Assembly: GCF_003991155.1 (NCBI RefSeq)
Contig: NZ_CP031294.1
Origin: Escherichia coli
Lineage (GTDB): Bacteria; Pseudomonadota; Gammaproteobacteria; Enterobacterales; Enterobacteriaceae
Length of the DNA: 64,000 nucleotides
Strand: one strand, 5' to 3'
Made by a program: the position numbers and the translations under genes. Under the pieces are notes generated by a model. The model had not been told where the DNA came from. It did not search any database and saw only the letters and a list, made by a program, of their open reading frames with translations. Positions 39,893 through 56,700 of this stretch are shown one piece after another (within the stretch, counting starts at the first letter, position 1; each line of letters opens with the position of its first letter).

Positions 39893-39896
39893 AATC

Positions 39897-39921: not shown

Positions 39922-39942
39922 CGTTTCCAATACTTCCACAAT

Positions 39943-39970
39943 AACGCGCCATTGATGGCGCGTTTTTTAT
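39943..39970 (+). terminator. second tandem terminator (AACGCGCCATTGATGGCGCGTT plus TTTTTT)
   Basis: Perfect 8-bp stem plus T-run. Confidence 0.6.
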
Positions 39971-40379: not shown

Positions 40380-40500
40380 TGCAGCCGTTTCCCGAAAAAA
40401 TCCTGGCCGTTTCCCGTCGGCTCATGAATACGTTCCTCGCCGTTTCTGAAAATTTCCCTGCGGCAGCTGGTGGCTATAGAGAAAGGGCCGTTTCTGGCCC
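40380..40500. repeat. iteron cluster 1: four copies of GCCGTTTC(C/T) followed by CGAAAA/TGAAAA-type sequence
   Basis: The copies are gcagccgtttcccgaaaaaatcc, tggccgtttcccgtcgg, ctcgccgtttctgaaaatttccctg and gggccgtttctggccc. Confidence 0.5.
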
Positions 40501-40509
40501 TCTTCTCAG

Positions 40510-40992: not shown

Positions 40993-41010
40993 GATTAATT
41001 CCTTATCGTA

Positions 41011-41046
41011 AATAACAAATTGTTTTCTTGTTGGTGTTAATTATCG
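41011..41046. promoter_or_regulatory. island operator/promoter element ATAACAAATTGTTTTCTTGTTGGTGTTAATTATCG
   Basis: The core palindrome is AACAAATTGTT. On the coding strand it gives GATAAT or TAATTA (a -10-like hexamer), then about 12 nt, then the palindrome, then the RBS. Confidence 0.5.
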
Positions 41047-41165
41047 TTGTACGAATAAGGCGTCAAAGTGGAAAGTTGCGGTAGCCGGACGGGAACAGGT
41101 GGGTTTGTCGGTTGCCTGGAGGTAAGAGGTTGGTGTTTTTAGCCTGCGGGAAACAGGATGGTCAT

Positions 41166-41193
41166 TTAAGGCCACCAGCATTGGTGGCCTTAA
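41166..41193. terminator. hairpin TTAAGGCCACCAGCATTGGTGGCCTTAA (copy 1)
   Basis: Perfect 11-bp stem. A near-identical copy with an inverted loop is at 41637. Confidence 0.5.
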
Positions 41194-41196
41194 TCT

Positions 41197-41480
41197 TTAG
41201 TGGAGCAGACCGATGTCGATGGTATCCCCTGAATCATCCACACGGATCATCAGCATGGCAAAGGCGTTTAGTGGATAGCTTGCGTGCCATTCAGGGAAGC
41301 GGTCATCTCGCATGAAGTCGGCAATGTCGTAAACGCATCCCTCAAAGTGGAAGAATCGCGTGCTTACCTGCTCGTCATAATCCACATGATCCATTTCTTG
41401 CTGTTCTGTTTCCGGCAAGTCCAGCCATGATTCAAGAAATACATTTTGTGCTTTAGGGGTAATGGTGAAATCAGTCATGA
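41197..41480 (-). CDS. small acidic protein (about 94 aa)
   Basis: The start is reassigned to the ATG at 41480, preceded by GAGGAT. Reads MLMTDFTITPKAQNVFLESWLDLPETEQQEMDHVDYDEQ... Strongly acidic. Confidence 0.45.
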
Positions 41481-41507
41481 GCATATCCTCACTGCGTAAA
41501 CATGTTG

Positions 41508-41540
41508 TTTTCTTGTTGGTGTAATTATCGCAGTGTAGAT
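41508..41540. promoter_or_regulatory. operator element variant AAACATGTTGTTTTCTTGTTGGTGTAATTATCG
   Basis: Same downstream half (TTTTCTTGTTGGTGT-AATTATCG) as the copy at 41011. The palindromic core is AACATGTT. Confidence 0.45.
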
Positions 41541-41636
41541 AAGGCATAAAAGAAGTTAATACAGGCTGAATACACAAGAAAGGTTCTGGAAGTTGATAGC
41601 CAGGTTTCAAACTAACCTTCGGTTATTAAAAGTCAT

Positions 41637-41664
41637 TTAAGACCACCAATGCTGGTGGCCTTAA
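41637..41664. terminator. hairpin TTAAGACCACCAATGCTGGTGGCCTTAA (copy 2)
   Basis: See the copy at 41166. Both are preceded by GTCATTTAA. Confidence 0.5.
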
Positions 41665-41813
41665 TAATTATCGCCCGATTACGCTAAGGATCTTTTCCTC
41701 AACTGATTTGTTGTTGCGACTAAACTGCCTTGCGTATCTGATGACAGAAGAGGCGTTTTGCTTTCTGACCATCTCGGCTCTTTCCTTCAGGCGTTTCTTG
41801 AAATCGCCCATAT

Positions 41814-42188
41814 TTACCACCAGGCGCAGAAGGTCAGTCTGTTATTGTGAAAGTCGTGGTTCTTAATCAGATCTTCCACAAGCTCTTTCAACTCCCCCAC
41901 ATCATGCCAGTAACCTTCATCGTACTCCTGACTGCCGAAGAAAAAACCTTCCCGGGTAGGCAAGTACTCTTCGCAATTACTTTCGTTTATGTGCATCAAA
42001 TGAGCCTTCAGAAAACAAATGTCATTCATCGTTAATTCTAAAAGCTCACAATTTTCGACTTCACCTACGTTGCGCTCCATCCACCCAACGAGCGCATTGA
42101 ACTTACGGAAGTAAGCAACCTGCTTTCTGGATGCCTCGTTATTCAGATCGTTTTTAGGCTGTGTCTCGATATAGATATCAAGTCCCAT
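41814..42188 (-). CDS. hypothetical acidic protein (about 124 aa)
   Basis: The start is reassigned to MGLDIYIETQ..., preceded by AAGGAAACC. An operator-like AAACAAATTGTTAT lies at 42247. Confidence 0.45.
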   Translation of the reverse strand: MGLDIYIETQPKNDLNNEASRKQVAYFRKFNALVGWMERNVGEVENCELLELTMNDICFLKAHLMHINESNCEEYLPTREGFFFGSQEYDEGYWHDVGELKELVEDLIKNHDFHNNRLTFCAWW

Positions 42189-42305
42189 GATGGTTTCCTT
42201 ATTAAGTTGCTTCAGTGAAATCATTTTCACAAATCAGATAAGGCAGAAAACAAATTGTTATCGGGCATAAGAAAATGGCGCGGTTTACGCGCCATTCAAA
42301 GAGGA

Positions 42306-42698
42306 TTAAGCGAATACGCTTTCAGGGATTAAGGTGTCAGCAGGAATGCCGGAGGTAATGCGCAGGCCGTACTGACCAATCCAGGTAGTGTTGGTATTCA
42401 GGCTGGAGGCGAATACGGTGTTAACCATATTCATCATGGTTTCAAACACCTCTTCATCAACCTGGCGGAAGTAGTTCTCGATTTTCAGCAGCAGCGGGTC
42501 AGTTGCATCGAAAATAGACTGGTATTGAGTCGCGTACTCGCCGCCGGAGGCATCACCTTTACGCACGATCGTACTGGCCTGGACTTCGGCACCAGTTTCG
42601 GTGTTGTACGTAACAACGGTGATTTTTGCCACATTCTTACCTTCGGCGGTTTCAGAGGCATAGTAAACATCAACTGTCAGTTTTTCGCGTTTAACGGT
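42306..42698 (-). CDS. hypothetical protein (about 131 aa)
   Basis: The start is reassigned to MTVKREKL..., preceded by GGAGAGTG. The palindrome GTAAGTATGTACTTAC lies upstream at 42745. Confidence 0.45.
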   Translation of the reverse strand, partial: TVKREKLTVDVYYASETAEGKNVAKITVVTYNTETGAEVQASTIVRKGDASGGEYATQYQSIFDATDPLLLKIENYFRQVDEEVFETMMNMVNTVFASSLNTNTTWIGQYGLRITSGIPADTLIPESVFA

Positions 42699-42827
42699 CA
42701 TTTCACTCTCCGTAGTGTTTTGGTTATTTTTATATTCTATGATCGTAAGTATGTACTTACAATACAAAAAAGCCCCGTAAGGATGGCGGGGCTGTCGTAC
42801 TGTCGACTAATTACCACTTGCACATTA

Positions 42828-43139
42828 TCAGGCTATTGCCATCACTGATGCTCTCTGAATCTCTTGCTGGGCCACGCGGTTAACTTCCATCAAAGCCAGT
42901 TCGAGCTGATGTTCCGGCCACATTCTTTGAAATGCCACCCAGCCTTTTCCACGCTGGCGACGAACATTCATTACATAACGAGTAAAGGTGTATTTATCGA
43001 AAGACACCGCTGTTTCACGGAACAGACGAATAGAGGTTCCATTGGCAACGATGTCCAGCAAAGTTAATTGAGCAACCAGCGCAGGCTTCTCTTTTCTCTT
43101 CTGGTCTTTGTCCAGACCAAGAACCAATGATTTTTTCAT
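42828..43139 (-). CDS. hypothetical protein (about 103 aa)
   Basis: The operator AAACAACTTGTTT at 43152 lies just upstream of the MKKSLVLG start. Confidence 0.4.
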   Translation of the reverse strand: MKKSLVLGLDKDQKRKEKPALVAQLTLLDIVANGTSIRLFRETAVSFDKYTFTRYVMNVRRQRGKGWVAFQRMWPEHQLELALMEVNRVAQQEIQRASVMAIA

Positions 43140-43292
43140 CACAACTCCGTAAACAACTTGTTTTCTCAATGGCGTAAATAATACCAGTAAGAAAACGGCT
43201 ACAAAGCATATTGATCAGGTGCATGAGCGATATGCAGGTTCTTCCCTGCGGCTATAGAGAAATTAAGCCAGCATTGCTGGCTTTGGTTAGGT

Positions 43293-43622
43293 TTACTCGA
43301 ATACTTCAAGAAACTCCTGAACGTCCCAATGCTGGACAAGGTGAAGATAGACCTTAGAAATAACATCATTCTCGCTATCGCATGTGAAGTAGTACTTCTG
43401 GCTGCGGTTGTATGTGTCCACACAAAATTCGCTCATATCCATAAAGTCAGCATCTTCACCCATGTCGCAAATCATCAAAGCAGGTGCGTCATCACGAGTC
43501 ATCAGCTCAAGCACCCACCGCGAATTGATCAGAGTGGAAGACCAACCTTCTAACTCATAAAACTGATCAAACTCTTTTTGAGTTAATTTCTTGATTTGGT
43601 TGATGTCGATATTTGCAAACAT
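43293..43622 (-). CDS. small acidic protein (about 110 aa)
   Basis: The product begins MFANIDINQIKKL... and has high Asp/Glu content. The operator lies at 43633. Confidence 0.45.
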   Translation of the reverse strand: MFANIDINQIKKLTQKEFDQFYELEGWSSTLINSRWVLELMTRDDAPALMICDMGEDADFMDMSEFCVDTYNRSQKYYFTCDSENDVISKVYLHLVQHWDVQEFLEVFE

Positions 43623-43699
43623 AAAGCAATCCTTAAACAACATGTTTTCTTGATGGTGTTATTATCGCAATAACGCACAGGTGAAAAAGGATTTTATTC

Positions 43700-45170
43700 C
43701 GGTGAATGTGGTTTTGGCAGTGAGTTTTCAGGTTCAGTACCGAGTACACTTTTTACATTATTCTGATTTAGTGGCCGAAGGTGGCTGGTGGGCAGAATAA
43801 TCCTCTCCCCGAAAACCTACTGAAATCGATTGTGACCCGTTGGCTGTCTGGCACAATTACGCTGTAACTGGGCATTCAGAGGGAATCCAGCGGTAAGTAA
43901 GTTCGCCTGCACGTGAGCGCCTCTCTTCTTCCCGCACATTACAGGTGGGTAGCCGCAACTCTCCCTCTCGCTATACCGGTACGCCGCCGTTCCTGAACCG
44001 GCATCGAGCCTTCTCCCGAAATCCACACAGGCAACTCGACCGTTTCCCTGAAAACCTCCAGCCGTTCCCCGAAGGCAACCCAGCCGTTTCTGTAGCGGGA
44101 TGCAACCTTTTCCCTGTATGGACCGAAGGCTGACCGTAGGGGTGTTACGGGGGATAAAATCAGGAGTTGAATAAATACGAAAAAGGAGGCGACACCCCTC
44201 CTTCTCTCCCCACTTATACATACCTGGCTTCTTCGCTATACATGTTGTGTTTTATTCGTGTTTTATCTGTCTCAACCTCTCTATGGACGTTAATACTCAC
44301 TCCTTCCAGAACGTTCTATACGGCGACTAATTCTGTTGGTGAATTGGGTGTGTTGTTCTCTCTGTCGGTGTATGTGGTTTCGTTCGTTTTGCGGTGGTTC
44401 TTCTATGGGGTGTTCTCGTCGTTTTGGTGATTGTTCTTCTCCGTGTATGGAGTAATGGCAGGTGGGCGATTCCTTTCGTTATTGTGTTTGAGTTGTTTGT
44501 CTGGAGTGCGTGAAGGGCTTTTGTAGTTATTCGTGTGTTGGGTAATGGCGTTTCCCGTGATTGTTCTGTTTCGTGTCTTTTGGGATTGAGAGAAACCTTG
44601 CGGTTACAGGCTTCGTTGGGGTTTCAGTGATTCTGGTGTTTCTTCGCTGTTTGGGTAATGGCGTGTCGTGGGTATCGCGCGTATGGAAGTTTCGAATTGC
44701 CTGTGAAAGTTAGGTTGGTTGTCCGGTAGCCTGAGAAGAAGAGGTGGGTCTTTTCGGTAGCCTGCCATAAAGAGGTTGGTTGTTTTTGGTAATGGCATAT
44801 GTGTTATTTAGTTGTTTTGTTATGCCTGAAAATAAGTTGTTTATATGGTTATGTAACGCAACGGGAACGATTTTGAGCGTGTGTTTTTGTTGGTAGTGTG
44901 TTGGGTCGTCTGTGGTGAAAATTGGACGCTGTGGCGCTGTCTGCTGCGTAGAATTACGGGTATAAGCAGTGATGTGTGAAAACGTCAATTTTTTAGACCA
45001 AATCGGGTGAAAGCGTTGATGTTTCGTTGATCTGTTATTCAGTTGTTTTCTTATTGGTATAAACAACTGTAACCTATTGATATTTAAGGATGTGATTCCA
45101 GGCATGGAAGGGGAGTAGTGGCGATCAACGGATTCTTATAGAAAAGAATCAAATTGTGACCGCCATTATC
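43700..45170. repeat. 1.4-kb non-coding region: iteron cluster 2 (about 43,960-44,130, the same CCGTTTCCC-GAAAA family as 40380-40500) plus a strongly G/T-skewed segment (about 44,230-44,800) with GGTAATGGC repeated four times and CGGTAGCCTG repeated twice
   Basis: No ORF with a credible start or RBS. The repeats were read directly (ctctccccgaaaacc, ccttctcccgaaatcc, cgaccgtttccctgaaaacc, cagccgttccccgaagg, cagccgtttctgtagcg, aaccttttccctgtatgg). The plus strand between 44,340 and 44,800 has very few A. Confidence 0.6.
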
Positions 45171-45176
45171 AATGTT

Positions 45177-45911
45177 TTACTTAGTTTTGTTTAGCAGAGA
45201 GAGAATTTCATCACTAATTTCACTCGCCTGTTTGATAGCCAATGCAGTTACCTCTTCTATGGTTGGTGACTGTTGATGCTCATATTTGGTTTCGGTTATG
45301 ACAATGTGTTCTTCACCAGAATTTGCGCATAGTGCCGCATTGACGATAAGGTTTGAGTAAGAATTTAGCAGAGCACTGTTGATGAACGCTTTCACGGTAT
45401 TACTGTCTGCACCAAATACATCTTTTCTGACCGCTTCAGCCTCACAGCGAACCCCTGCAGCAACATCGTGAAGAACATGTATGGCCTTGGAGCTTGTTTG
45501 TTCACAGTACTCAATCATTATTGTCGAATTGTTCTGTTCAACAAACGATCTGATGCCTGACGATTTACCCATAGCATCGAAGGCAGCGTGACCCGCACTA
45601 GTAGAGATATCTTCATAGAGTTCTTCATCGCTATCTTTTTCTTCAGGTGTCGAGGTGTCTTCATCGTCGTAATAGATATTGCCTTTAATCAGTGTCTTGG
45701 ACACTTGATATAAACAATAAGAAACGAGATTTAAGCATTGGATTTTAGCTGTATTGTCCTTTGTCGCCTCGCTATTCAGTTCTTTCGCTTCTTCAGTAAG
45801 GCTGTTGATAAGACTTTGTATTTTTTCCAACGCGTTAGGTGCACACTCCGCGTTGTCCATAAAGAATTTATAACCAGTCCCAGGGATTTCTAAACTTTTC
45901 AACTTTTTCAT
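45177..45911 (-). CDS. hypothetical acidic protein (244 aa)
   Basis: Good ORF. The Asp/Glu-rich central segment reads DDEDTSTPEEKDSDEELYEDIS. Confidence 0.5.
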   Translation of the reverse strand: MKKLKSLEIPGTGYKFFMDNAECAPNALEKIQSLINSLTEEAKELNSEATKDNTAKIQCLNLVSYCLYQVSKTLIKGNIYYDDEDTSTPEEKDSDEELYEDISTSAGHAAFDAMGKSSGIRSFVEQNNSTIMIEYCEQTSSKAIHVLHDVAAGVRCEAEAVRKDVFGADSNTVKAFINSALLNSYSNLIVNAALCANSGEEHIVITETKYEHQQSPTIEEVTALAIKQASEISDEILSLLNKTK

Positions 45912-45956
45912 TTCTTTGATAATCCTAAAAACAAACTACCAATGCTTTAATATCTG

Positions 45957-46256
45957 TTACCAGTTCCAGCACTCAAGCCCTTCAACGACCGGCGCACCAC
46001 AATCAAAATGTACAGAGTCAAAGCCTACATCAAGTACTTTCTGAATGTTAGCAATCGCGCCTTCGGATATACCATATCGACGCAAGTCCTCTTTCCAGAC
46101 ATCATCCTGTAACCCAGCGTGGACAATACAACCGCCGTCAATTTGTGAAACCCAATCCAGCTCATTGCTTGCGATCATGAATCGGCGAGCATCTTCCTCT
46201 GATGTATGAGATGAGCTGATCAATGCCACCTGGTAGGCTTGGGTAATGTTCAACAT
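45957..46256 (-). CDS. small acidic protein (99 aa)
   Basis: Two operator palindromes lie immediately upstream. Confidence 0.45.
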   Translation of the reverse strand: MLNITQAYQVALISSSHTSEEDARRFMIASNELDWVSQIDGGCIVHAGLQDDVWKEDLRRYGISEGAIANIQKVLDVGFDSVHFDCGAPVVEGLECWNW

Positions 46257-46265
46257 TTCAACAAC

Positions 46266-46336
46266 TCCGAAACAATTTGTTTTCTTATGTGGCTTATTAT
46301 CTCAATCAACAAAAGGTAGAAAACAAATTGTTTTAG
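46266..46336. promoter_or_regulatory. tandem operators AAACAATTTGTTT (46268) and AAACAAATTGTTT (46318)
   Basis: Read directly. The first is followed by TCTTATGTGGCTTATTATCTC, as in the other copies. Confidence 0.5.
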
Positions 46337-46417
46337 GGTTTGTTAAAGTCAGAAGGGGTTGTGTCTATATGAAAATGCCCAGCGTGTTGCCGGGCATTGC
46401 GAACAGAGGTTGTTTAA

Positions 46418-48451
46418 TTACTTAACCTGGTGGCCTGGTTTAGCACCAGCATCCGGGCTTAACAGGAAGATATCTTTCCCGCCGGGGCCAGCAGCCATCA
46501 CCATGCCTTCGGAGATACCGAAGCGCATTTTACGCGGAGCCAGGTTAGCCACCATAATGGTGTGACGACCAATCAGTGCCTGTGGGTCTGGATAAGCAGA
46601 ACGGATGCCTGAGAAGACATTACGCTTTTCACCACCGAGATCCAGTGTCAGACGCAGCAGTTTGTCAGAACCTTCGACAAACTCCGCGTTTTCAATCAGC
46701 GCCACACGCAGGTCAACTTTGGCGAAGTCGTCAAAGGTGATGGTTTCCTGAATCGGGTCGTCAGCCAGTGGGCCAGTTACCGGTGCAGCTGTGGCTTTCA
46801 CTTCTTCTTTGGATGCTTCCACCAGTGCTTCCACCTGTTTCATATCGATACGGTTATACAATGCCTTGAACGGATTCACTTTATGGCCCAGCAGCGGTTG
46901 CTGGATACCATCCCAGGTCAGTTCTGTATTCAGGAATGCTTCTGCACGTTCAGTCAGTTTCGGCAGTACCGGTTTCAAGTACGTCATCAGCACGCGGAAC
47001 AGGTTAATGCCCATAGAGCAAATCGCCTGCAGATCGGCATCGCGTCCTTCCTGCTTCGCCACCACCCACGGAGCCTGTTCATCGACATATCGGTTAGCCA
47101 GGTCAGCCAATGCCATGATTTCACGGATAGCTTTACCAAATTCGCGGCTTTCCCATGCTTCGCCAATCACTTCAGCGGCATCAGTAAAGGTTTTGTACAG
47201 TTGCGGGTCAGCCAGTTCGCTTGCCAGCACGCCGTCAAAACGCTTGTTGATAAAGCCTGCATTACGGGAGGCCAGGTTAACCACTTTGTTCACGATATCG
47301 GCATTCACGCGCTGAACGAAATCCTCCAGGTTGAGATCGATATCATCAATGCGCGAAGAGAGTTTCGCAGTGTAGTAGTAACGCAGGCTGTCGGCGTCAA
47401 AATGATTCAGCCAGGTGCTGGCTTTAATAAAGGTGCCGCGAGACTTGGACATCTTCGCGCCGTTCACCGTCACATAGCCGTGAACAAACAGGTTGGTCGG
47501 CTTGCGGAAGTTGCTGCCTTCCAGCATGGCAGGCCAGAACAGGCTGTGGAAGTAAACAATATCTTTACCGATGAAGTGGTACAGCTCGGCTGTGGAGTCT
47601 TTCTTCCAGTATTCATCGAAGCTGGTGGTATCGCCGCGCTTGTCGCACAGATTCTTGAAGGAACCCATGTAGCCAATCGGCGCGTCCAGCCAGACGTAGA
47701 AATATTTGCCCGGCGCGTTCGGAATTTCAAAACCGAAGTAAGGCGCATCGCGGGAGATATCCCACTGTTGCAGGCCGGATTCAAACCACTCCTGCATTTT
47801 GTTCGCCACCTGCTCCTGCAACGCACCGCTGCGGGTCCATGCCTGCAACATTTCGCTGAAAGAGGGCAGATCAAAGAAGAAGTGTTCGGAATCACGCATT
47901 ACCGGGGTAGCGCCAGAAACCACCGATTTCGGCTCGATCAATTCAGTCGGGCTATATGTTGCGCCGCAGACTTCACAGTTATCGCCGTATTGATCTGGCG
48001 CTTTACATTTCGGGCAGGTGCCTTTCACAAAACGATCCGGCAGGAACATGCCTTTTTCCGGGTCGTACAACTGAGAGATAGTGCGGTTTTTAATAAAACC
48101 GTTCTCTTTCAGGCGAGTATAGATAAGCTCAGACAGCTGGCGGTTCTCTTCGCTGTGCGTCGAGTGATAGTTGTCATAGCTGATGTTAAAGCCTGCGAAA
48201 TCAGTCTGGTGTTCCTGACTCATTTCGCCAATCATCTGCTCCGGTGTGATACCAAGCTGCTGTGCTTTCAGCATGATCGGCGTACCGTGGGCATCGTCGG
48301 CACAGATGAAATTAACCTCGTGGCCGCGCATTCGCTGGTAACGAACCCAGACATCAGCCTGGATGTGCTCCAGCATATGGCCGAGGTGGATTGAGCCGTT
48401 AGCGTACGGCAGCGCGCACGTCACCAGAATTTTCTTCGCGACTTGGGTCAT
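46418..48451 (-). CDS. metG: methionyl-tRNA synthetase
   Basis: Translation from [35 protein letters not shown]... carries the class I HIGH motif and KMSKS (…GAKMSKSRG…). The full-length product is 677 aa with a C-terminal tRNA-binding domain. A terminator hairpin follows the stop. Confidence 0.95.
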
Positions 48452-48608
48452 AGTAGGCATTACTTCTTTGTAGTGAAAAGGGGCTTGATAGTAACAAAAT
48501 GGCCTTATGTCTGCCATGTGATAACAGCATTTCTCATAAATGATTAAATGTCGTAGCTGGAGTACACTACAAGGCGACAATTGCGCAAATTAAAATAAAG
48601 GAGACGGG

Positions 48609-49709
48609 ATGAGCGAGTCCAAATCGCCGGATGCCCTGAGAGCAATGGTAGCCGGTACGCTGGCTAATTTTCAGCACCCAACCCTGAAACACAACCTGAC
48701 TACGCTTAAAGCGTTACACCATGTTGCGTTGATGGATGACACACTGCATGTCGAACTAATCATGCCTTTCGTGTGGAATAAGCCTTTTGAAGACCTGAAA
48801 GAGCAATGTAGTGGTGATCTGCTCCGTATCACTGGCGCAAAGGCTATTGACTGGAAGCTGTCGTACAACATTGCCACGCTTAAGCGCGTCAAAAACCAAC
48901 CAGGCATTAATGGCGTTAAGAACATTATCGCCGTCAGCTCAGGCAAGGGCGGCGTGGGTAAATCCTCCACGGCGGTAAACCTGGCACTGGCGTTGGCTGC
49001 TGAAGGTGCGAAAGTTGGTATTTTGGATGCCGATATCTATGGTCCATCAATTCCAACCATGCTGGGCGCGGAAAACCAACGTCCAACCTCACCTGACGGT
49101 ACTCACATGGCACCTATCATGTCTCATGGCCTGGCAACCAACTCTATTGGTTATCTGGTCACCGACGACAATGCAATGGTGTGGCGTGGACCGATGGCCA
49201 GCAAGGCGCTGATGCAGATGTTGCAGGAAACTCTATGGCCTGATCTGGACTATCTCGTTCTCGATATGCCGCCGGGCACTGGTGATATTCAGTTGACGCT
49301 GGCGCAGAACATTCCTGTAACTGGTGCGGTTGTGGTAACTACGCCGCAAGACATCGCGCTGATCGATGCGAAGAAAGGCATTGTGATGTTCGAAAAAGTC
49401 GAAGTGCCGGTACTGGGTATCGTCGAAAACATGAGTGTGCATATTTGCAGTAACTGCGGTCATCACGAGCCAATTTTTGGCACCGGTGGCGCACAGAAAC
49501 TGGCCGAGAAATACAACACGCAGTTGTTAGGCCAAATGCCACTTCATATCTCTCTTCGTGAAGATCTGGATAACGGAACACCAACCGTTATTAGTCGTCC
49601 AGATAGCGAATTTACGGCTATTTATCGTGACCTCGCAGATCGCGTTGCCGCCCAAATGTATTGGCAAGGTGAAGTAATACCTGGCGAAATCGCATTCCGC
49701 GCAGTGTGA
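48609..49709 (+). CDS. mrp: Mrp/ApbC Fe-S cluster carrier ATPase
   Basis: MSESKSPDALRAM... The P-loop reads VSSGKGGVGKSSTAVNLA. The CxxC pair reads CSNCGHHEP. Divergent from metG with a 157-bp intergenic region. A terminator hairpin follows. Confidence 0.93.
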   Translation: MSESKSPDALRAMVAGTLANFQHPTLKHNLTTLKALHHVALMDDTLHVELIMPFVWNKPFEDLKEQCSGDLLRITGAKAIDWKLSYNIATLKRVKNQPGINGVKNIIAVSSGKGGVGKSSTAVNLALALAAEGAKVGILDADIYGPSIPTMLGAENQRPTSPDGTHMAPIMSHGLATNSIGYLVTDDNAMVWRGPMASKALMQMLQETLWPDLDYLVLDMPPGTGDIQLTLAQNIPVTGAVVVTTPQDIALIDAKKGIVMFEKVEVPVLGIVENMSVHICSNCGHHEPIFGTGGAQKLAEKYNTQLLGQMPLHISLREDLDNGTPTVISRPDSEFTAIYRDLADRVAAQMYWQGEVIPGEIAFRAV

Positions 49710-49745
49710 TAAAAGGCGGTGCATTGCACCGCCTAATCAGTTCTC

Positions 49746-50135
49746 CTACATCACGGGACAATCATCAAACTCGCCACTTCTTGCGTCGTTGATAATGTGA
49801 GTGATCACACCAAACACGGCATTGCTGCCCGTGCATCCATCGTCATCCTTTGGCAATGCTTCCTTCTTACCGGTTCTTAAATCCTCCAGATGCTGACGTG
49901 GGTACTTCCGGTATCTTTTTACGCGATATTCCCCATCCAGAGCGCATACAAGCAGAGAACCATCAACCGGGGTAAGTGAGGAATCGACCACCAGCAATGC
50001 ACCCTGTAATATTCCCTCACGATGATGACTATCAGCTGCCCTCATGAAGTAGGTCGCTGAAGGATGTCTAATTATCTGCTGATCAAGAGAAATACGGCTC
50101 TCAGCATAATCCGCCGCAGGAGAAGGGAAGCCCAT
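49746..50135 (-). CDS. UmuD/LexA-like S24 peptidase-domain protein (orphan, no umuC partner in the window)
   Basis: The 129-aa product has a C-terminal S24-like domain ...DGSLLVCALDGEYRVKRYRKYP.... A LexA box lies 19 bp upstream. Confidence 0.65.
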   Translation of the reverse strand: MGFPSPAADYAESRISLDQQIIRHPSATYFMRAADSHHREGILQGALLVVDSSLTPVDGSLLVCALDGEYRVKRYRKYPRQHLEDLRTGKKEALPKDDDGCTGSNAVFGVITHIINDARSGEFDDCPVM

Positions 50136-50153
50136 AGCGTTTTCACCTCAGAG

Positions 50154-50173
50154 TACTGTTTATCCATACAGTA
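50154..50173. promoter_or_regulatory. LexA (SOS) box TACTGTTTATCCATACAGTA
   Basis: Perfect CTGT-N8-ACAG with TA flanks, read directly at 50154-50173. Confidence 0.8.
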
Positions 50174-50233
50174 TACATTAAAGATGCTTGAAGTGTGCAA
50201 TAGCGCGATGCTTTGCGCTCGTCTGGTGGCGCG

Positions 50234-50485
50234 TTATTTTTTGGCTATATCTTCTTTCTGATATACCGGATCGTTTCCTTTTGGCAGCAGGAGGCTTAAC
50301 TGCCGGTAGTGCCGTAGCCGTTCCATGAAATAGGTGCGCAGGTTCTCAGGTTGCTCACGGGCTACCTGTTCCGCTATGACGGGTATGTTCAATCGCTCTT
50401 TGTAGGCAACCCCCCTGGCAGCCAGGTCAACGTTAACTTTATTCCTTTCTTCCTGGCTTTTGGCTGCTATGTTCCAGTTGCTCAT
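50234..50485 (-). CDS. hypothetical protein (83 aa)
   Basis: ORF adjacent to the next small ORF. No motif. Confidence 0.4.
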
Positions 50486-50487
50486 GT

Positions 50488-50676
50488 TTAAGGCTCACAT
50501 TTCCAGATGGTATTCTGAACACCCGTACCAGGCGCAAGATGAGGGTTAGCGTTCGCGCTATGCAGATATACAGCTTTAGACTTTCCGTATTGCTGACAGG
50601 CTTTATCTGCGTTTTTTGGCAGGCTATCCAAGCCAATACCAGCCATCGAACTGGATGCTAACCTTTTCACCGTCAT
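50488..50676 (-). CDS. hypothetical small protein (about 62 aa)
   Basis: Weak. Start chosen at MTVKRL. Confidence 0.25.
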
Positions 50677-50837
50677 TGTATTGCACCATCGCACACCCAG
50701 ACATAGCTAAAATCGCACCGACAATACCGCTTTTCCAAAAAGCTCTAATTAGGTCATTCGTTACCTAATGTCCGAACTGCTAAAGCATCCAAGTTGCTGT
50801 AGAATCACATCCAATTACTTAAACCTGAAATAAGTGG

Positions 50838-52396
50838 ATGAAAATGACAAGTATTCAACAACGTGCAGAGCTTCATCGCCAGATCTGGCAAATTGCTAAC
50901 GATGTCAGGGGTTCAGTCGATGGATGGGATTTTAAGCAGTACGTTTTGGGCGCGCTTTTTTACCGTTTTATCAGCGAAAATTTTTCCAGTTATATTGAAG
51001 CCGGTGATGACAGTATCTGTTATGCGAAACTGGATGACAGCGTAATTACTGATGACATTAAAGACGATGCCATCAAAACTAAAGGCTACTTCATCTACCC
51101 CAGTCAGCTTTTCTGCAACGTAGCTGCGAAAGCAAATACTAATGACAGACTGAATGCAGATTTAAACAGCATCTTCGTTGCTATCGAAAGTTCTGCTTAC
51201 GGTTATCCTTCAGAAGCTGACATCAAAGGTTTGTTTGCTGATTTCGATACCACCAGTAACCGCCTGGGTAACACCGTTAAAGATAAAAATGCCCGCTTGG
51301 CTGCGGTTCTGAAAGGGGTTGAAGGGCTAAAACTTGGTGACTTCCATGAACATCAGATTGACCTGTTCGGTGACGCCTATGAGTTCCTGATTTCTAACTA
51401 TGCGGCGAATGCCGGTAAGTCCGGCGGCGAGTTCTTTACACCGCAGCACGTCTCTAAGCTGATTGCACAACTGGCTATGCACGGGCAGACCCACGTTAAC
51501 AAAATCTACGACCCGGCAGCAGGCTCCGGTTCGCTGTTGTTGCAGGCGAAAAAACAGTTTGATGACCATATCATCGAAGAAGGTTTTTTTGGTCAGGAAA
51601 TCAACCATACGACCTATAACCTGGCGCGTATGAACATGTTTTTGCACAACATCAACTACGACAAGTTTGATATCAAGCTGGGTAATACACTGACTGAGCC
51701 GCACTTCAGAGATGAAAAACCGTTTGATGCCATCGTTTCTAACCCGCCGTATTCGGTGAAATGGATTGGCAGCGATGACCCGACGCTGATTAACGATGAA
51801 CGTTTTGCCCCGGCTGGCGTTCTGGCCCCCAAATCCAAAGCTGACTTTGCGTTTGTATTACATGCGCTGAACTATCTTTCGGCCAAAGGTCGCGCTGCGA
51901 TTGTCTGCTTCCCAGGCATTTTTTACCGTGGCGGCGCGGAGCAGAAAATCCGTCAGTATCTGGTCGACAATAACTATGTCGAAACCGTGATTTCACTGGC
52001 ACCGAATCTGTTCTTTGGCACCACTATTGCCGTCAATATTCTGGTGCTGTCTAAACATAAAACGGATACCAAAGTTCAGTTTATTGATGCCAGCGAACTG
52101 TTCAAAAAAGAGACTAACAACAACATTCTGACCGATGCTCATATCGAACAGATTATGCAGGTATTTGCCAGCAAGGAAGATGTTGCTCATCTGGCGAAAT
52201 CTGTTGCGTTTGAGACTGTTGTCGCGAATGACTATAACCTGTCGGTGAGCAGCTATGTGGAAGCGAAAGATACTCGCGAAATTATCGATATCGCTGAGCT
52301 GAATGCTGAGCTGAAAACCACGGTCAGCAAAATCGACCAGTTGCGTAAAGATATTGATGCGATTGTTGCTGAGATTGAAGGTAGCGAGGTACAGGC

Positions 52397-52400
<4 letters not shown>
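50838..52400 (+). CDS. hsdM: type I restriction-modification methyltransferase subunit HsdM (type IC, EcoR124-family)
   Basis: [25 protein letters not shown]... An AdoMet-binding region and a catalytic SNPPYSVKW (NPPY) motif are present. The stop overlaps the hsdS start. Confidence 0.9.
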
Positions 52401-53656
<1,256 letters not shown>

Positions 53657-53777
53657 TTGACCATTGCTACCGACCGGATCACCTTAACATCCGGTCTATA
53701 TAGAGACTATTTTTTACACGCCGGAAGTCGCCCTTAAAGCCCTTCCGGCCCTTGCCAGACGGCACAAAGGATGCGCT

Positions 53778-56700
53778 ATGACTCATCAGACACACACCAT
53801 TGCTGAATCCAATAACTTTATCGTTCTTGATAAGTACATCAAAGCCGAGCAAACAGGCGACAGCTACCAGAGCGAATCGGACCTGGAACGTGAACTGATT
53901 CAGGATCTGCGGAATCAGGGCTATGAATTTATTTCCGTAAAATCTCAGTCGGCGATGCTGGCCAACGTTCGGGAACAGCTTCAGAGCCTCAATGGTGTGA
54001 TGTTTAATGACAGCGAGTGGCGGCGCTTCACGGAGCAGTATCTGGACAACCCCAGCGATGGTATTCTGGATAAAACCCGTAAAATCCATATCGACTATAT
54101 CTGCGACTTTATTTTTGACGACGGGCGACTTGAGAACATCTATTTGATAGATAAAAAGAATCTCATGCGCAATAAGGTGCAGATTATCCAGCAGTTTGAA
54201 CAGACGGGTTCTCATGCTAACCGTTATGACGTCACGATCCTGGTTAATGGTTTACCGCTGGTGCAAATCGAACTAAAAAAACGCGGGGTGGCGATTCGTG
54301 AGGCTTTCAACCAGATACATCGTTACAGTAAAGAGAGTTTTAACAGCGAAAATTCCCTGTTTAAGTATCTGCAACTGTTTGTCATTTCTAACGGCACCGA
54401 TACCCGTTATTTTGCCAACACGACAAAGCGCGATAAAAACAGTTTTGACTTCACCATGAATTGGGCGAAATCAGACAACACGCTGATTAAAGACCTCAAA
54501 GACTTTACCGCTACCTTTTTCCAGAAACATACTCTGCTGAATGTTCTGGTGAACTACAGCGTTTTTGACAGTAGTCAGACGCTACTGGTGATGCGACCGT
54601 ACCAGATTGCCGCCACCGAGCGCATTCTGTGGAAAATTAAGAGTTCCTTTACAGCGAAGAACTGGTCAAAACCGGAAAGCGGTGGGTATATCTGGCATAC
54701 TACCGGTTCTGGTAAAACCCTCACCAGCTTTAAAGCCGCGCGTCTGGCAACAGAGCTGGACTTTATTGATAAAGTCTTCTTTGTGGTCGACAGGAAAGAC
54801 CTCGATTACCAGACCATGAAGGAATATCAGCGTTTTTCGCCAGACAGCGTCAACGGCTCGGAAAATACCGCAGGCCTTAAACGAAATCTGGATAAGGACG
54901 ATAACAAAATTATCGTCACTACTATTCAGAAACTCAATAACCTGATGAAAGCAGAAAGCGACCTGCCTGTATATAATCAGCAAGTGGTGTTTATATTTGA
55001 TGAATGCCACCGCAGCCAGTTTGGAGAAGCGCAGAAAAACCTGAAGAAGAAATTCAAACGCTATTATCAGTTTGGTTTTACCGGCACCCCTATTTTCCCG
55101 GAAAACGCTTTAGGCTCAGAAACGACCGCCAGCGTATTTGGTCGTGAATTGCATTCGTATGTAATTACCGATGCGATTCGTGATGAAAAAGTGCTCAAAT
55201 TCAAGGTGGACTACAACGATGTGCGGCCACAGTTTAAATCTTTAGAGACAGAAACCGACGAGAAAAAACTGAGTGCGGCTGAAAATCAGCAGGCATTTCT
55301 TCATCCCATGCGTATACAGGAAATTACGCAATATATTCTGAATAACTTCCGCCAGAAGACCCACCGTACTTTCCCAGGTTCCAAAGGCTTTAATGCCATG
55401 CTGGCAGTGAGTAGCGTGGATGCCGCGAAAGCCTATTACGCGACGTTTAAACGGTTACAAGAGGAAGCAGCTAATAAATCGGCTACCTATAAACCGCTGC
55501 GTGTTGCAACAATCTTCTCCTTTGCCGCCAATGAAGAACAAAATGCCATTGGTGAAATTTCCGATGAAACTTTTGATACCAGCGCAATGGACAGCAGTGC
55601 TAAAGAGTTTCTTGACGCTGCAATTCGTGAGTATAACAGCTATTTTAAAACTAACTTCAGCACCGACAGTAACGGTTTTCAGAACTACTATCGTGATTTA
55701 GCCCAACGGGTTAAAAATCAGGATATCGATCTGTTAATTGTCGTTGGGATGTTTTTAACCGGCTTCGACGCTCCAACATTGAACACGCTATTCGTCGATA
55801 AAAACTTGCGTTTTCACGGCCTGATGCAGGCATTCTCCCGTACCAACCGCATTTATGACGCTACTAAAACCTTCGGTAACATCGTCACTTTTCGGGATCT
55901 GGAACGCTCAACCATTGATGCCATAACGCTGTTTGGTGATAAAAATACTAAAAATGTGGTGTTAGAAAAGAGTTATGCTGAGTATATGGAAGGCTTTACA
56001 GATGCTGCCACTGGTGAAGCTAAACGCGGCTTTATGGCAGTAGTTTCAGAACTGGAACAACGGTTCCCTGACCCTGCCAGTATTGAAAGTGAAAAACAGA
56101 AGAAAGACTTCGTAAAACTGTTTGGTGAATACCTGCGTGCCGAGAACATCCTGCAAAACTATGATGAATTTGCCACGCTGAAAGCCCTGCAACAAATCGA
56201 TCTTAGCGATCCTGTTGCGGTAGAAAAATTCAAAGCAGAACATTATGTGGATGATGAAAAGTTCGCTGAATTGCAAACAATTCGTCTCCCTGCTGAACGC
56301 AAGATTCAGGATTATCGTTCTGCCTATAACGATATTCGCGACTGGCAGCGCCGTGAGAAAGAAGCTGAGAAAAAAGAGAAATCAACCACTGACTGGGATG
56401 ACGTAGTTTTTGAGGTCGATTTGCTGAAGTCTCAGGAAATAAACCTGGATTATATCCTTGGACTGATTTTCGAACACAACAGACAAAATAAAGGCAAGGG
56501 CGAAATGATCGAAGAGGTCAAACGCTTAATTCGTTCAAGCCTGGGGAACCGGGCGAAAGAGGGCCTGGTGGTCGATTTTATTCAGCAAACGAACCTGGAT
56601 GATTTACCAGACAAAGCCAGTATCATTGAGGCATTCTTTACGTTTGCTCAACGCGAACAGCAACGTGAAGCAGAAGCATTGATAAAAGAAGAAAATCTCA

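Follow-up and report, generated by a model that had tools for sequence, protein, structure and literature searches.

The 64,000-nt window of Escherichia coli contig NZ_CP031294.1 comes from a single prophage that is extrachromosomal and belongs to the pSLy3 group within the SSU5 supergroup of phage-plasmids (P-P). The element is circular, has a size of about 110 kb and replicates as a plasmid. The metG-apbC pair present in the window is acquired cargo, and the DNA on both sides of it is the element's own backbone. Taken as one joint claim, the identity of the element, the borders of the cassette and the host origin of the cargo are highly probable.

A phage-plasmid with a metG-apbC cassette

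Positions 1-50000 of the window differed from the circular E. coli plasmid NZ_OW849379.1 (110,667 bp) by 3 mismatches in 50 kb. The window harbors tail, capsid, portal, terminase and ParB genes. Of the E. coli plasmids, 236 had the backbone portal and terminase genes, compared with 0 chromosomes in 5,426 complete genomes. The name pSLy3 stands for a curated group in the SSU5 supergroup (PMC7969092), whose members (e.g., pSLy3, pECOH89 and the phages Cyrano and PhiR41_1) were collinear with the window, 95-100% identical to it and matched it in their structural, partition and small-gene modules. The metG-apbC block of the window was shared by pSLy3, pECOH89 and Cyrano, and was also found in the phage genome records of PhiR41_1 and CMS-2020a. 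The P-P papers covered by our search (including PMC7969092) report phage genes as conserved and plasmid genes as variable, without mention of metG or apbC.

Matches to phage SSU5 at 31965-45172 and 56959-63422 had unchanged order and orientation. Because both flanks of the metG-apbC block are collinear with this phage, they belong to a single element. The preliminary description had called the metG-mrp (apbC) block core and its flanks accessory, which is the wrong way round. It had proposed that two related prophages lie back-to-back around the core, or that one element was split or rearranged around it. The SSU5 collinearity refuted the former. From the latter, a single element on both sides held true, but metG-apbC is not chromosomal core.

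A core chromosomal segment between two prophages, or inside a split one, would account for the higher GC content of the block, for the fact that every E. coli chromosome has these housekeeping genes and for a motif common to both flanks. We rejected this reading, which has next to no probability, on the plasmid match (the window equals a circular plasmid), the backbone counts (chromosomal in 0 of 5,426 genomes), the limits of chromosomal similarity (it ends at the two stop codons, and the chromosomal neighbors, a DUF4132 pseudogene and yehE, are missing) and the collinearity of the flanks with one phage genome, SSU5. Moreover, the plasmid copy is just 88-90% identical to the chromosomal version and, by counts, additional to it. 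An assembly artefact, i.e., a chimeric contig joining chromosomal metG-apbC to phage DNA, would fit the abrupt composition change at both junctions. It was rejected as extremely improbable, since identical junctions recurred in about 218 independently assembled, closed plasmids and in several deposited phage genome records, and since the cassette is a distinct allele and not the chromosomal allele of the host.

No integrase was annotated in the window, and no att core was found, as stated in the preliminary description. For a plasmid prophage with ParB-type partition genes, however, there are no prophage ends to define, and the missing integrase and att site are expected.

Borders, genes and neighbors of the cassette

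The cassette and its surroundings comprise the following features:

40510-45911, minus strand: array of small backbone genes, most with a copy of AAACAA-N-TTGTTT upstream
45957-46256, minus strand: DUF5983-family backbone gene left of the slot (Pfam PF19419, E = 7e-11)
46340-49745: host-derived cargo cassette in a variable P-P slot (metG terminator, metG, divergent control region, apbC, shared hairpin)
46374-46398, minus strand: intrinsic-terminator-like hairpin downstream of metG, followed by UUUUCAU (-20.1 kcal/mol, z -5.0)
46418-48451, minus strand: metG, methionine--tRNA ligase (MetRS), 677 aa, intact
47201-47850, minus strand: probable gene-conversion tract of about 650 bp in metG, from identity profile and triplet sites
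48452-48608, no strand: divergent metG/apbC control region, 157 bp (K-12 equivalent, 131 bp)
48609-49709, plus strand: apbC (mrp), Fe-S cluster carrier ATPase, 366 aa, intact
49714-49734, no strand: hairpin between the convergent apbC and humD (-19.0 kcal/mol on plus, -18.3 on minus strand; z -6.6 and -5.6)
49746-50183, minus strand: humD (UmuD'-like, phage P1 type; NCBIfam HumD equivalog, 219.8 bits vs. cutoff 120)
50154-50173: putative humD promoter with a LexA box read from the sequence, TACTGTTTATCCATACAGTA
50184-56955, no strand: second, independent cargo module of hot and a type I restriction-modification system
50234-50485, minus strand: hot, DNA polymerase III theta (NCBIfam theta, 97.6 bits vs. 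cutoff 97)
50838-56894, plus strand: hsdM-hsdS-hsdR, type I restriction-modification (hsdM NCBIfam, 650.8 vs. cutoff 242.75)
56959-57501, minus strand: remnant of a truncated DUF4942 backbone gene, where backbone synteny restarts

Similarity to E. coli chromosomes was limited to 46417-49705, with the stop codons of metG and apbC as its limits; nothing else in the window than the two coding sequences and their spacer is shared with these chromosomes. Together with the plasmid identity and the 0 chromosomal backbones, this led us to conclude that metG-apbC is acquired cargo. Homology to pBL12EC-1 covered 45957-46339 and 49746-50175 (89.5%), with a 927-bp DUF4145 gene between them, and homology to SSU5 ended at 46338. 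The GC content was 0.48-0.53 in the cassette versus 0.40-0.46 in the flanks and changed abruptly at both junctions. These comparisons placed the junctions within about 30 bp of the positions suggested earlier (about 46,370 and 49,740). Strong hairpins were found at both ends (46374-46398 and 49714-49734). The slot is bordered by the promoter/palindrome cassette of the DUF5983 gene on the left and by the P1-type humD gene on the right. A search for direct repeats at the junctions, as suggested in the preliminary description, found none around 46340-49745; likewise, no att site was present at the borders. Neither is expected there because the prophage replicates as a plasmid.

MetG showed 9 differences from the K-12 enzyme, all of them conservative. 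It matched the NCBIfam equivalog NF001100 (1019.8 bits vs. cutoff 587), and HLGH, KMSKS and the CPKC/CEVC zinc knuckle were all there. Compared to K-12, dS was 0.316, dN 0.006 and dN/dS 0.019. The identity to E. coli was 90-98%, with segmental dS of 0.15-0.54 and no shift in GC3. The tract 47201-47850 was 96-98% identical to E. coli chromosomes, and 46418-47200 only 90-92%. At triplet sites of the tract, two chromosomes agreed against the plasmid at 7 sites and did not at 25; for the remaining metG the numbers were 82 and 33 (Fisher p = 8e-7 vs. the tract). Some chromosomes (97.3%) were nearer to the window allele here than another P-P allele (95.3%). The tract lies within the chromosomal allelic diversity of E. 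coli, and gene conversion is the probable cause. The hairpin downstream of metG shows no sequence relationship to the terminator of K-12 metG, and its matches were confined to P-P loci (0 chromosomal loci).

In the control region, the 45 nt nearest to metG, including TGTTACTAT and the ribosome binding site (RBS), were K-12-like, and the remainder could not be aligned. The identity was 69-73% to E. coli and 100% among four P-P alleles. By eye, TGTTACTAT may be read as an extended -10-like promoter element; a simple promoter scan gave no match to the sigma-70 consensus in 48452-48608.

ApbC starts 3 aa later than the K-12 protein, matched the NCBIfam equivalog NF008669 (759.3 bits vs. cutoff 348) and contains both the Walker A motif GKGGVGKS and CSNC. 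Compared to K-12, dS was 1.56, dN 0.035 and dN/dS 0.023; segmental dS ranged from 0.92 to saturation, and the identity to E. coli was 75-88%. The overall GC3 of apbC was 0.53 versus 0.62 in K-12, with ranges of 0.43-0.57 for apbC, 0.57-0.67 for K-12 and 0.39-0.54 for backbone genes. The hairpin at 49714-49734 has a U-run (UUUUAU) on the minus strand and is therefore best read as the humD terminator, possibly a bidirectional one. It is kept in Cyrano, replaced from 49726 on in pSLy3 and not present in K-12 and pBL12EC-1.

On the left side, the small-gene array is collinear with SSU5 up to 45172, and the pBL12EC-1 homolog of the next gene (45957-46256) is also annotated as DUF5983. On the right side, the sequence from 49747 is about 87% identical to humD-hot of phage P1. 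The humD gene is common to the window, Cyrano and pBL12EC-1; pSLy3 has the metG-apbC block without humD, hot or hsd. Cyrano, pSLy3 and SSU5 lack the hot-hsd module and have ea22/eaa-like and DUF4942 genes there instead; the DUF4942 gene is annotated as DNA methyltransferase in SSU5. Its remnant in the window has an identity of 84.6% to the 5' portion of SSU5_095, 88.8% to pSLy3 and 98% to Cyrano, and is annotated as "incomplete; missing C-terminus" in pCP53-113k. A related plasmid harbors a DUF1778/GNAT toxin-antitoxin pair. The window contains no tRNA genes and thus no "Met-tRNA module".

Two palindrome families

The palindromic sites are located as follows:

2313, 31871, 43151, 46270, 46321, 59088, 59817: exact copies of AAACAA-N-TTGTTT
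31896, 41013, 41498, 42248, 43635, 44830: copies of AAACAA-N-TTGTTT with one mismatch
46270-46282 and 46321-46333, no strand: two 13-bp copies bracketing the promoter region of the DUF5983 gene
59088-59100 and 59817-59829: 13-bp copies of the right flank, upstream of minus-strand backbone genes
5292, 9504, 26503, 29926, 35217, 50749, 60708, 62923: sites of the second palindrome, ATAGGTAA-N4-TTACCTAT
62923-62942, no strand: second palindrome in perfect form, ATAGGTAAGTGATTACCTAT, directly upstream of an N6-adenine methyltransferase gene

The preliminary description stated that both flanks share two motifs. This was correct for the 13-bp palindrome AAACAA-N-TTGTTT, which occurs in 7 exact copies in the window versus 0.08 expected (0 of 100 shuffles reached 7), in both flanks and in the structural-gene region. 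In the right flank, 9.3-10 kb separate the copies from the junction. The palindrome was found in 6 of 6 P-P loci, including 8 copies in 29 kb of SSU5, and in 0 of 82 other loci (81 chromosomal stretches and one chromosomal contig mislabeled as phage). It is a real, P-P-wide signature of the element and gives no information on island borders.

The copies lie a short distance upstream of genes. The sites at 41013, 41498, 42248, 43151, 43635 and 44830 are 12-60 nt upstream of annotated or ORF starts, and over both flanks the distance to the start codons is 12-66 nt. Five of the seven exact copies come directly after a -10-like hexamer (ATAAGA, TTGAGA or ACTATA), which suggests operators overlapping transcription starts. 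We therefore regard them as putative binding sites of the element's own regulatory network, a role that is much less certain than the joint claim on element, borders and cargo. Dispersed operators of a plasmid prophage are known from phage P1, where C1 operators are scattered over the genome. Like these, AAACAA-N-TTGTTT is a short conserved site upstream of many separate transcription units; unlike them, it has a different sequence, is a perfect 13-bp palindrome and is an operator by prediction. At 46270-46333, the arms of the palindromes make a 30-nt inverted repeat. pSLy3, Cyrano and pBL12EC-1 all have kept this region, even next to a different downstream gene; it is the last backbone regulatory cassette ahead of the cargo.

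For the other motif, GGTAAGT/ACTTACC, the claim held in part. The heptamer is enriched (10 copies vs. 4.25 expected; reached in 1 of 100 shuffles), but no exact GGTAAGT...ACTTACC palindrome exists in the window. Half of the heptamers (5 of 10) fall into a real, imperfect 20-bp palindrome, ATAGGTAA-N4-TTACCTAT, with 35 sites in 248 kb of P-P loci versus 3 sites in 808 kb of chromosomal loci. Convincing sites of this kind are missing from the left flank (37-46.4 kb). The heptamers at 43892 (left flank), 49971, 51414 and 52948 lie within coding sequence and are non-palindromic. A perfect copy in SSU5 (locus L003, position 25630) adjoins the homologous DNA methyltransferase gene SSU5_088.

History and possible function of the cargo

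Among E. coli plasmid records, 218 had a cassette copy of at least 95% identity and 215 a backbone of at least 95% identity. Thus, the cassette is found in about 218 E. coli P-Ps, in a ratio of roughly 1:1 to the close backbones. In 5,425 genomes, metG-apbC occupied 5,429 chromosomal and 226 plasmid places, which indicates that strains with the P-P hold the cassette besides their chromosomal copy. In PLSDB, 191 plasmids encode a MetG of at least 99% protein identity, with E. coli, Shigella, E. albertii and E. marmotae among the examples listed. Independent capture in Klebsiella or Acinetobacter elements was not found. The cargo occurs in one P-P lineage only, so that there is no convergent evidence for adaptiveness.

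Pairwise comparison of P-P alleles gave dN of 0 to 0.0006 and dS of 0.03-0.145, and none of five alleles (window, pCP53-113k, pSLy3, Cyrano, Esc8) was disrupted. With a dN/dS of about 0.02 against K-12, both genes are under strong purifying selection. In neighbor-joining trees, both metG and apbC grouped with Escherichia, the latter on a long branch. The 80 loci returned for comparison did not include chromosomes of E. albertii, E. fergusonii and E. marmotae, and a closer donor may therefore exist.

The data suggest a single, ancient capture of the gene pair from an Escherichia-lineage chromosome, probably by illegitimate recombination; the junctions show neither repeats nor ends of mobile elements. 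The pair would since have been kept by purifying selection in nearly all members of the clade. Parts of metG may have been overwritten later by homologous exchange with the resident chromosomal metG, while the spacer and apbC drifted and apbC moved towards the lower G+C content of the element. A chimera of two donors, with metG from an Escherichia chromosome and spacer plus apbC from a distant, unsampled enterobacterium, is rather unlikely, and single capture with gene conversion is not cleanly separated from it. The sharp drop of identity (95% to 73%) across the metG start codon speaks for two donors, as does a dS of apbC versus E. coli (1.56) above that between E. coli and Salmonella (1.34). 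However, all genomes examined have metG and apbC divergently arranged as their native chromosomal synteny, which a joining of two donors would have had to re-create exactly. The apbC tree keeps the plasmid copy with Escherichia, and the shift of apbC GC3 towards the backbone value suggests long residence rather than a foreign donor. Mosaic tracts inside metG and, in Cyrano, inside apbC fit repeated homologous exchange.

With regard to function, the least certain part of our model, the cassette may be an insulated "moron" with a hairpin at each end and its own control region. This region is identical in four P-P alleles and would retain the extended -10-like element, 5' UTR and RBS of metG. Neither palindrome family occurs in the cassette, including this region, so its transcription is probably independent of the phage circuit and would take place in the plasmid state and, with a high copy number, in lytic replication. 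More ApbC and more MetRS, the latter nearly identical to the host enzyme, would be available, with an effect of dosage or autonomy and not of a new activity. This dosage model is much less certain than the joint claim. The gain from a second, nearly identical MetRS is not obvious, and our literature search found no paper discussing plasmid-borne metG-apbC copies.

Like phage morons or auxiliary host genes, the cassette forms a self-contained unit, complete with control region and terminators, between backbone operons; it is host-like in sequence and dispensable for virion structure. Host-homolog genes of this kind are humD and hot of phage P1, and P1-type versions of both adjoin the cassette. 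Unlike morons, the cassette combines an essential translation enzyme with an Fe-S carrier and preserves their chromosomal synteny as a block; the cargo does not serve virulence, defense or DNA metabolism and still recombines with the host copy. Giant viruses such as mimivirus encode MetRS, and a full-length MetRS in a viral genome links the window to these viruses and to jumbo phages. In 50,697 phage records, the only other phage-sized MetRS matches were a 274-kb Microcystis phage and uncultured phages of about 635 kb. The window's genome, in contrast, has only about 110 kb, is temperate and shows no tRNA genes in the window, and its MetRS is 99% identical to the host protein, whereas the viral lineages are deeply diverged (24-30% identity). 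The mupirocin-resistant isoleucyl-tRNA synthetases MupA/MupB are likewise extra plasmid copies of an essential class I synthetase. Such resistance copies are strongly diverged, whereas MetG, with its few conservative substitutions, is an ordinary metG equivalog and reached only 33 bits with the MupA/MupB models. Its sequence does not point to a resistance role.

A neutral passenger, picked up by chance like a specialized-transduction product, hitch-hiking with a successful clade and functionless for the element, would be compatible with the restriction to one clade, with a MetRS that adds no new activity and with the lack of a known phenotype. We consider it very unlikely. The dN/dS is only about 0.02 despite a dS of 0.3 in metG and saturation in apbC, and five intact P-P alleles would be very unlikely for 3.1 kb of unselected coding DNA. 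Practically every close backbone has the cassette, though neighboring slots turn over, and its control region is invariant among the four alleles compared. A specific role in phage-host conflict, instead of a plain dosage supplement, is also unlikely, if slightly less so. Where Met-tRNA charging or initiation is the target of a host defense or toxin, the cassette could serve as decoy or replacement; alternatively, it could make the plasmid indispensable or feed signaling with more MetRS editing products. The strong and long-lasting selection would suit such a role, as would the defense/counter-defense cargo nearby (humD, hot, type I restriction-modification), DUF4145 in the same slot elsewhere and the DUF1778/GNAT pair on the related plasmid. 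Some toxins of the latter class acetylate charged tRNAs. Two papers also count in its favor: MetRS activities affect persistence (PMC11004401), and a MetRS editing product was reported as SdiA ligand (PMC13463772). These points are circumstantial, the 9 conservative differences from the host enzyme do not make an obviously resistant variant, and 5,429 chromosomal places in 5,425 genomes are compatible with a chromosomal copy kept everywhere.

We concluded that the element itself is ordinary and its cargo mildly interesting: a phage-plasmid of a known family carries long-kept, intact copies of two host housekeeping genes.

Replicon carrying metG and apbC

The preliminary description had taken metG and apbC (mrp) as a core chromosomal segment lying between two related prophage elements or within a single split one. 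A chromosomal continuation of the block was not seen: similarity to E. coli chromosomes was confined to the stretch between the stop codons of metG (46417) and apbC (49705), and the K-12 neighbours of the genes were absent. Window positions 1-50000 differed at 3 positions from 32001-82000 of NZ_OW849379.1, a circular plasmid of 110,667 bp, and the gene coordinates coincided exactly. In a megablast search of 5,426 complete E. coli genomes with 46300-49800, plasmids of about 110 kb matched at 100% and chromosomes at only about 90%. Portal and terminase genes were present in 236 plasmid records and on none of the chromosomes of these genomes, and about 4% of the genomes (236/5,426) hold this backbone or a relative of it. 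In gene order the window follows both Salmonella phage SSU5 (67-87% identity) and pSLy3 (95-98%), the latter also giving its name to one of four curated groups in the SSU5 phage-plasmid supergroup (PMC7969092). Escherichia phage Cyrano matched 39645-50183 at 98% identity. The plasmid match, the distribution of the portal and terminase genes and the collinearity with SSU5 and pSLy3 together indicate that the window is a piece of one plasmid prophage and not of a chromosome.

The annotation of the identical plasmid and its relatives comprises tail fibres, tape-measure, capsid, portal and terminase proteins, two ParB-family partition proteins, ATPases and a helicase, together with many small hypothetical genes, metG, apbC, humD, hot, a type I restriction-modification system, rnhA and a Dam-like methylase. 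Phage structural and packaging genes and plasmid partition genes share one replicon, which is extrachromosomal, circular, about 100-115 kb in size and unintegrated; these features, like the gene order, are those of SSU5-supergroup phage-plasmids. The close relatives Cyrano and PhiR41_1 were deposited as phage genomes. By analogy with them the element, which is typical of its described phage-plasmid group, would form virions and persist as a plasmid in lysogeny.

The proposed junctions at about 46,370 and 49,740 are real and well placed, as homology to the related element pBL12EC-1 ended at 46339 and resumed at 49746. Att cores, expected there if these were prophage ends, did not appear: in a repeat search over 46200-49900 no direct repeat paired 46340 with 49745, and the search for att sites or target duplications in this region returned only short repeats at chance level. 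An integrase was indeed not visible in the window, since none is annotated there in the identical or related plasmids, and no tRNA gene was found in the window, either as an integration site or as a Met-tRNA module. An integrated prophage or genomic island was rejected, as integrase, junction-pairing repeat, tRNA gene and chromosomal neighbours were all missing. Nor was metG homology supported as a means of plasmid integration, because the backbone was never chromosomal (0 chromosomes, 5,426 genomes). The element is a circular replicon and therefore has no prophage ends to define; its recognition fixes the boundaries. A host-like housekeeping block in a phage-plasmid can mislead annotation towards "two prophages", a plasmid contig called chromosomal, or a futile hunt for att sites.

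In the complete E. coli genomes, the plasmid-type cassette was found at an identity of at least 95% in 218 records and the backbone, at the same threshold, in 215, and thus in a ratio of about 1:1. In PLSDB, 191 plasmids encode a MetG protein of at least 99% identity; the examples listed had E. coli, Shigella, E. albertii and E. marmotae as hosts. A search of 50,697 phage records for methionyl-tRNA synthetase (MetRS) gave these phage-plasmids, a 274-kb Microcystis phage and uncultured phages of about 635 kb; all other matches were short records or chromosomal contamination. Short "phage" records of this kind (Listeria, Staphylococcus, Salmonella S.Kent) look like contaminating fragments. The contigs of Acinetobacter phage MD-2021a were dismissed as an independent metG-mrp capture, being ordinary chromosomal DNA; the entry CAKLQF020000011.1, with efflux pumps, dcd, pfs and dusC around metG-mrp, is mislabelled or contaminated. 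Klebsiella metG "plasmids" were likewise not accepted as independent captures, judged by size alone (232 kb to 5.4 Mb, far above the phage-plasmids of about 110 kb).

The metG-apbC cassette in its variable slot

The organization of the cassette and its surroundings is listed below; the 13-bp palindrome is AAACAA-N-TTGTTT.

Features of the cassette and its flanks (window coordinates)
40.5-46.3 kb, minus strand: array of small genes; in most, the 13-bp palindrome precedes the start codon by 12-66 nt
45957-46256, minus strand: DUF5983 gene, last of the small-gene array; promoter bracketed by palindromes at 46270 and 46321
Seven bases beyond the palindrome copy at 46321: start of the cargo, which opens with a hairpin
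46374-46398, minus strand: metG terminator hairpin with U-run, -20.1 kcal/mol
46418-48451, minus strand: metG coding region
48452-48608: divergent control region of 157 bp between metG and apbC
48609-49709, plus strand: apbC coding region
49714-49734, U-run on minus strand: hairpin between the convergent genes apbC and humD
49746-50135, minus strand: humD, right border of the slot (NF051876, 219.8 bits, cutoff 120)
50184-56955: hot and hsdMSR, in place of the ea22/eaa/DUF4942 genes of Cyrano, pSLy3 and SSU5
56959-57501, minus strand: truncated DUF4942 remnant left by the hot/hsdMSR replacement; SSU5 synteny resumes after it

The segment between the conserved backbone genes is variable, as is typical for a moron. 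In pBL12EC-1, with about 82% backbone identity to the window, a 927-bp DUF4145 gene replaces the 3,406 bp of the window. SSU5 homology ends at 46338 and other genes follow, and pSLy3 shares 46262-49725 with the window and then has different genes. The metG-apbC/DUF4145 slot behaves as a cargo hotspot. In the pBL12EC-1 comparison locus (38250-38993 and 27610-28590), the slot holds the DUF4145-domain gene and a copy of ISKpn26 interrupts the early region.

The cassette may be a moron with a promoter and terminator of its own; strong hairpins are present at both of its ends. As the U-run of the 49714-49734 hairpin lies on the minus strand, this hairpin probably terminates humD. Neither it nor the metG terminator matched any of the chromosomal loci compared. 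The control region was identical among the four phage-plasmid alleles compared; it keeps the metG-proximal extended -10-like sequence TGTTACTAT, the 5' UTR and the RBS that are shared with K-12. A consensus promoter scan of the spacer gave no match, and neither palindrome family of the element was present in it.

A perfect LexA box, TACTGTTTATCCATACAGTA, is located at 50154-50173 upstream of humD, as expected for HumD, a P1-type UmuD' homologue. The humD-hot segment (49746-50485) was about 87% identical to the phage P1 module, and this similarity begins exactly at the humD stop codon. This SSU5-type element hence has the humD-hot module in common with phage-plasmids of the P1 family, to which it is unrelated; in Cyrano and pBL12EC-1, humD occurs by itself. 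A perfect tandem repeat of 12 bp at 52949-52988 lies within hsdS (52397-53656, plus strand); its 3.3 copies of CTTACCGCTGAG encode 12 residues in central HsdS. In EcoR124-type (type IC) systems, the length of the spacer in the recognition site depends on how many TAEL repeats there are, and slippage can alter the count. Downstream of the repeat, 53038-53522 was the sole part of 45957-63410 that did not align with pCP53-113k, and may represent a swap of the target-recognition domain between plasmids that are otherwise 97-99.7% identical. Another variable slot adjoins the tail-fibre region (2385-3818; 645-1443 in the pCP53-113k comparison locus): pCP53-113k has a DUF1778/GNAT toxin-antitoxin pair there and the window has different hypothetical genes (2454-3206 and 3191-3574).

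Selection and history of the two genes

The identity of both proteins rests on NCBIfam equivalog cutoffs, which were passed by a wide margin. MetG reached 1019.8 bits for NF001100 (cutoff 587) and 163 for the C-terminal domain model TIGR00399 (cutoff 117), and its translation shows HLGH, KMSKS and a CPKC...CEVC zinc knuckle, as in long dimeric class I synthetases. ApbC reached 759.3 bits for NF008669 (cutoff 348) and has the deviant Walker A motif GKGGVGKS and CSNC of the Fe-S carriers. Compared to K-12, dS was 0.316 and dN 0.006 for metG (dN/dS 0.019), and dS 1.56 and dN 0.035 for apbC (dN/dS 0.023). Among phage-plasmid alleles, dN was 0 to 0.0006 with dS up to 0.145. These values mark long-term purifying selection on both genes. 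Plasmid MetG is expected to be active in aminoacylation, given its dN/dS and a protein sequence 99% identical to that of the E. coli enzyme. The cassette occupies its variable slot in the extrachromosomal prophage as an intact unit under selection, and is probably insulated.

In neighbour-joining trees, metG and apbC both grouped with Escherichia. For metG, the plasmid copy, E. coli and Escherichia sp. E1V33 formed a trichotomy; for apbC, the plasmid copy lay on a long branch as sister to the other two. A chromosomal donor was not found among 80 species-representative genomes: the best matches listed were Escherichia at only 88%, with other Escherichia species outside the sample. Identity to E. 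coli chromosomes varied strongly along the cassette.

Identity of the cassette to E. coli chromosomes
46418-47200, metG: 90-92%
47201-47850, metG: 96-98%
Rest of metG: about 92-96%
Spacer: abrupt fall to 69-73%
apbC: 75-88%

We compared the plasmid to two E. coli chromosomes site by site. Within 47201-47850 the chromosomes agreed with each other against the plasmid at 7 sites, compared to 25 otherwise; for the rest of metG these numbers were 82 and 33 (p = 8e-7). The plasmid allele is thus no outgroup to the two chromosomes in this part, where some chromosomes are nearer to the window allele (97.3%) than is a second phage-plasmid allele (95.3%). The GC3 of apbC had dropped in the direction of the backbone, to 0.43-0.57, compared to 0.57-0.67 in K-12 and 0.39-0.54 in backbone genes; the GC3 of metG was unchanged.

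The simplest reading of these data would be that a native divergent metG-apbC pair was captured once, long ago, and remained resident in the phage-plasmid; its composition would have drifted where recombination with the host had become impossible, and exchange with the resident chromosomal metG would have persisted where similarity stayed high. A rival explanation takes the cassette as a chimera from two donors. The abrupt fall of identity in the spacer is what it has to offer; the two trees place both genes with Escherichia, the GC3 shift of apbC towards the backbone also speaks against it, and we consider such a double origin quite improbable. Exchange of metG may also run from plasmid to chromosome, as judged from shared variants.

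Three further observations concern chromosomal alleles. Divergence between two E. coli chromosomal metG alleles (comparison loci L005 and L091) reaches 6% when counted per 200 bp. The variant sites of 47501-47850 unite the EC1 chromosome with the plasmid against K-12 in 10 cases, and with K-12 against the plasmid in only 3. In CP170191.1, deposited as the chromosome of Enterobacter hormaechei B56, a 3,281-bp metG-apbC segment (2755-6035 of the comparison locus), bounded exactly by the two stop codons, matches E. coli K-12 at 100%; the flanks of this segment show only about 77% identity to another Enterobacter species and no E. coli match. This segment is either a recent allelic replacement of the gene pair or an artefact of assembly or polishing.

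Palindrome families and the possible role of the cassette

The 13-bp palindrome is strongly non-random: 7 exact copies were found, compared to 0.08 expected, and 6 further copies have one mismatch. Five of the exact copies directly follow a -10-like hexamer (ATAAGA, TTGAGA or ACTATA), and two copies (59088 and 59817) lie in the right flank, past the point where backbone synteny resumes. The motif is best read as a putative site for a regulator of the element itself, overlapping transcription starts.

The second proposed motif, a GGTAAGT/ACTTACC palindrome shared by both flanks, held only in part. The heptamer GGTAAGT was marginally enriched (10 copies, 4.25 expected), and one copy, at 52948, is the edge of the hsdS tandem repeat. 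No exact GGTAAGT-Nx-ACTTACC palindrome was present in the window in either order. Half of the heptamers (5/10) are part of a real 20-bp imperfect palindrome, ATAGGTAA-N4-TTACCTAT, with 35 sites in 248 kb of phage-plasmid DNA compared to 3 in 808 kb of chromosomal DNA, a density about 38-fold higher.

Sites of the 20-bp imperfect palindrome in the window
5292, 9504, 26503, 29926, 35217, 50749, 60708, 62923: structural region and right flank; no convincing site in the left flank

This palindrome is found 10-30 nt upstream of the starts of the portal, capsid-region Ig-like-domain, tail-fibre, methylase and hsdM genes and also in the divergent region between parB and the helicase gene. As RNA it would form only a weak hairpin of 7-8 bp (-4 to -7 kcal/mol). 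Its distribution points to another family-wide site.

The ORF at 37540-38142 (plus strand) matched Pfam Flag1_repress, the FljA-type phase-1 flagellin repressor, with E = 2.5e-84, and its SSU5 counterpart is annotated as "transcriptional repressor". A flagellin-repressor-type protein on a phage-plasmid is itself curious. This FljA-like protein is a candidate for binding to AAACAANTTGTTT or to the ATAGGTAA-N4-TTACCTAT family. The two palindrome families provide handles on how genes are regulated in these phage-plasmids, a group that is common in the clinic.

The cassette would be transcribed independently of the phage circuit; the cell would then receive one extra dose of MetRS and ApbC while the element is a plasmid, and many when it replicates lytically. 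Only 9 residues, all conservative, distinguish the plasmid MetRS from that of the host, so the effect would be one of dosage or autonomy and not a new activity; we regard this step as the weakest of the whole explanation. The most far-reaching reading, with metG-apbC as an anciently captured, clade-defining adaptive module of Escherichia phage-plasmids that still trades with host metG and has a specific role in takeover or conflict, for instance by sustaining Met-tRNA charging and Fe-S delivery during host shutdown or attack, and with the palindromes as an undescribed network of the SSU5 supergroup, appears unlikely to us.

The gene pair is already annotated in public records and the element belongs to a described group. 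In a full-text search of the literature, neither metG nor apbC was mentioned in connection with SSU5/pSLy3-type elements. In the papers that could be searched we found no precedent for the nearly universal presence of the pair across this clade, the strong and lasting selection on it, the mosaicism with the chromosome or the two palindrome families. As host-derived auxiliary cargo of a temperate phage, the cassette adds a case to a known kind and is no new kind of system.

Members of the pSLy3/SSU5-type group, which is clinically common, have been reported with blaCTX-M-15. In strains with a pSLy3-type backbone, an essential synthetase and an Fe-S carrier are encoded a second time, by copies under selection. 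The cassette offers a modest, testable instance of core translation genes that a mobile element carries and exchanges. If the far-reaching reading were true, phage-plasmids would be a reservoir and recombination partner for an essential translation gene.
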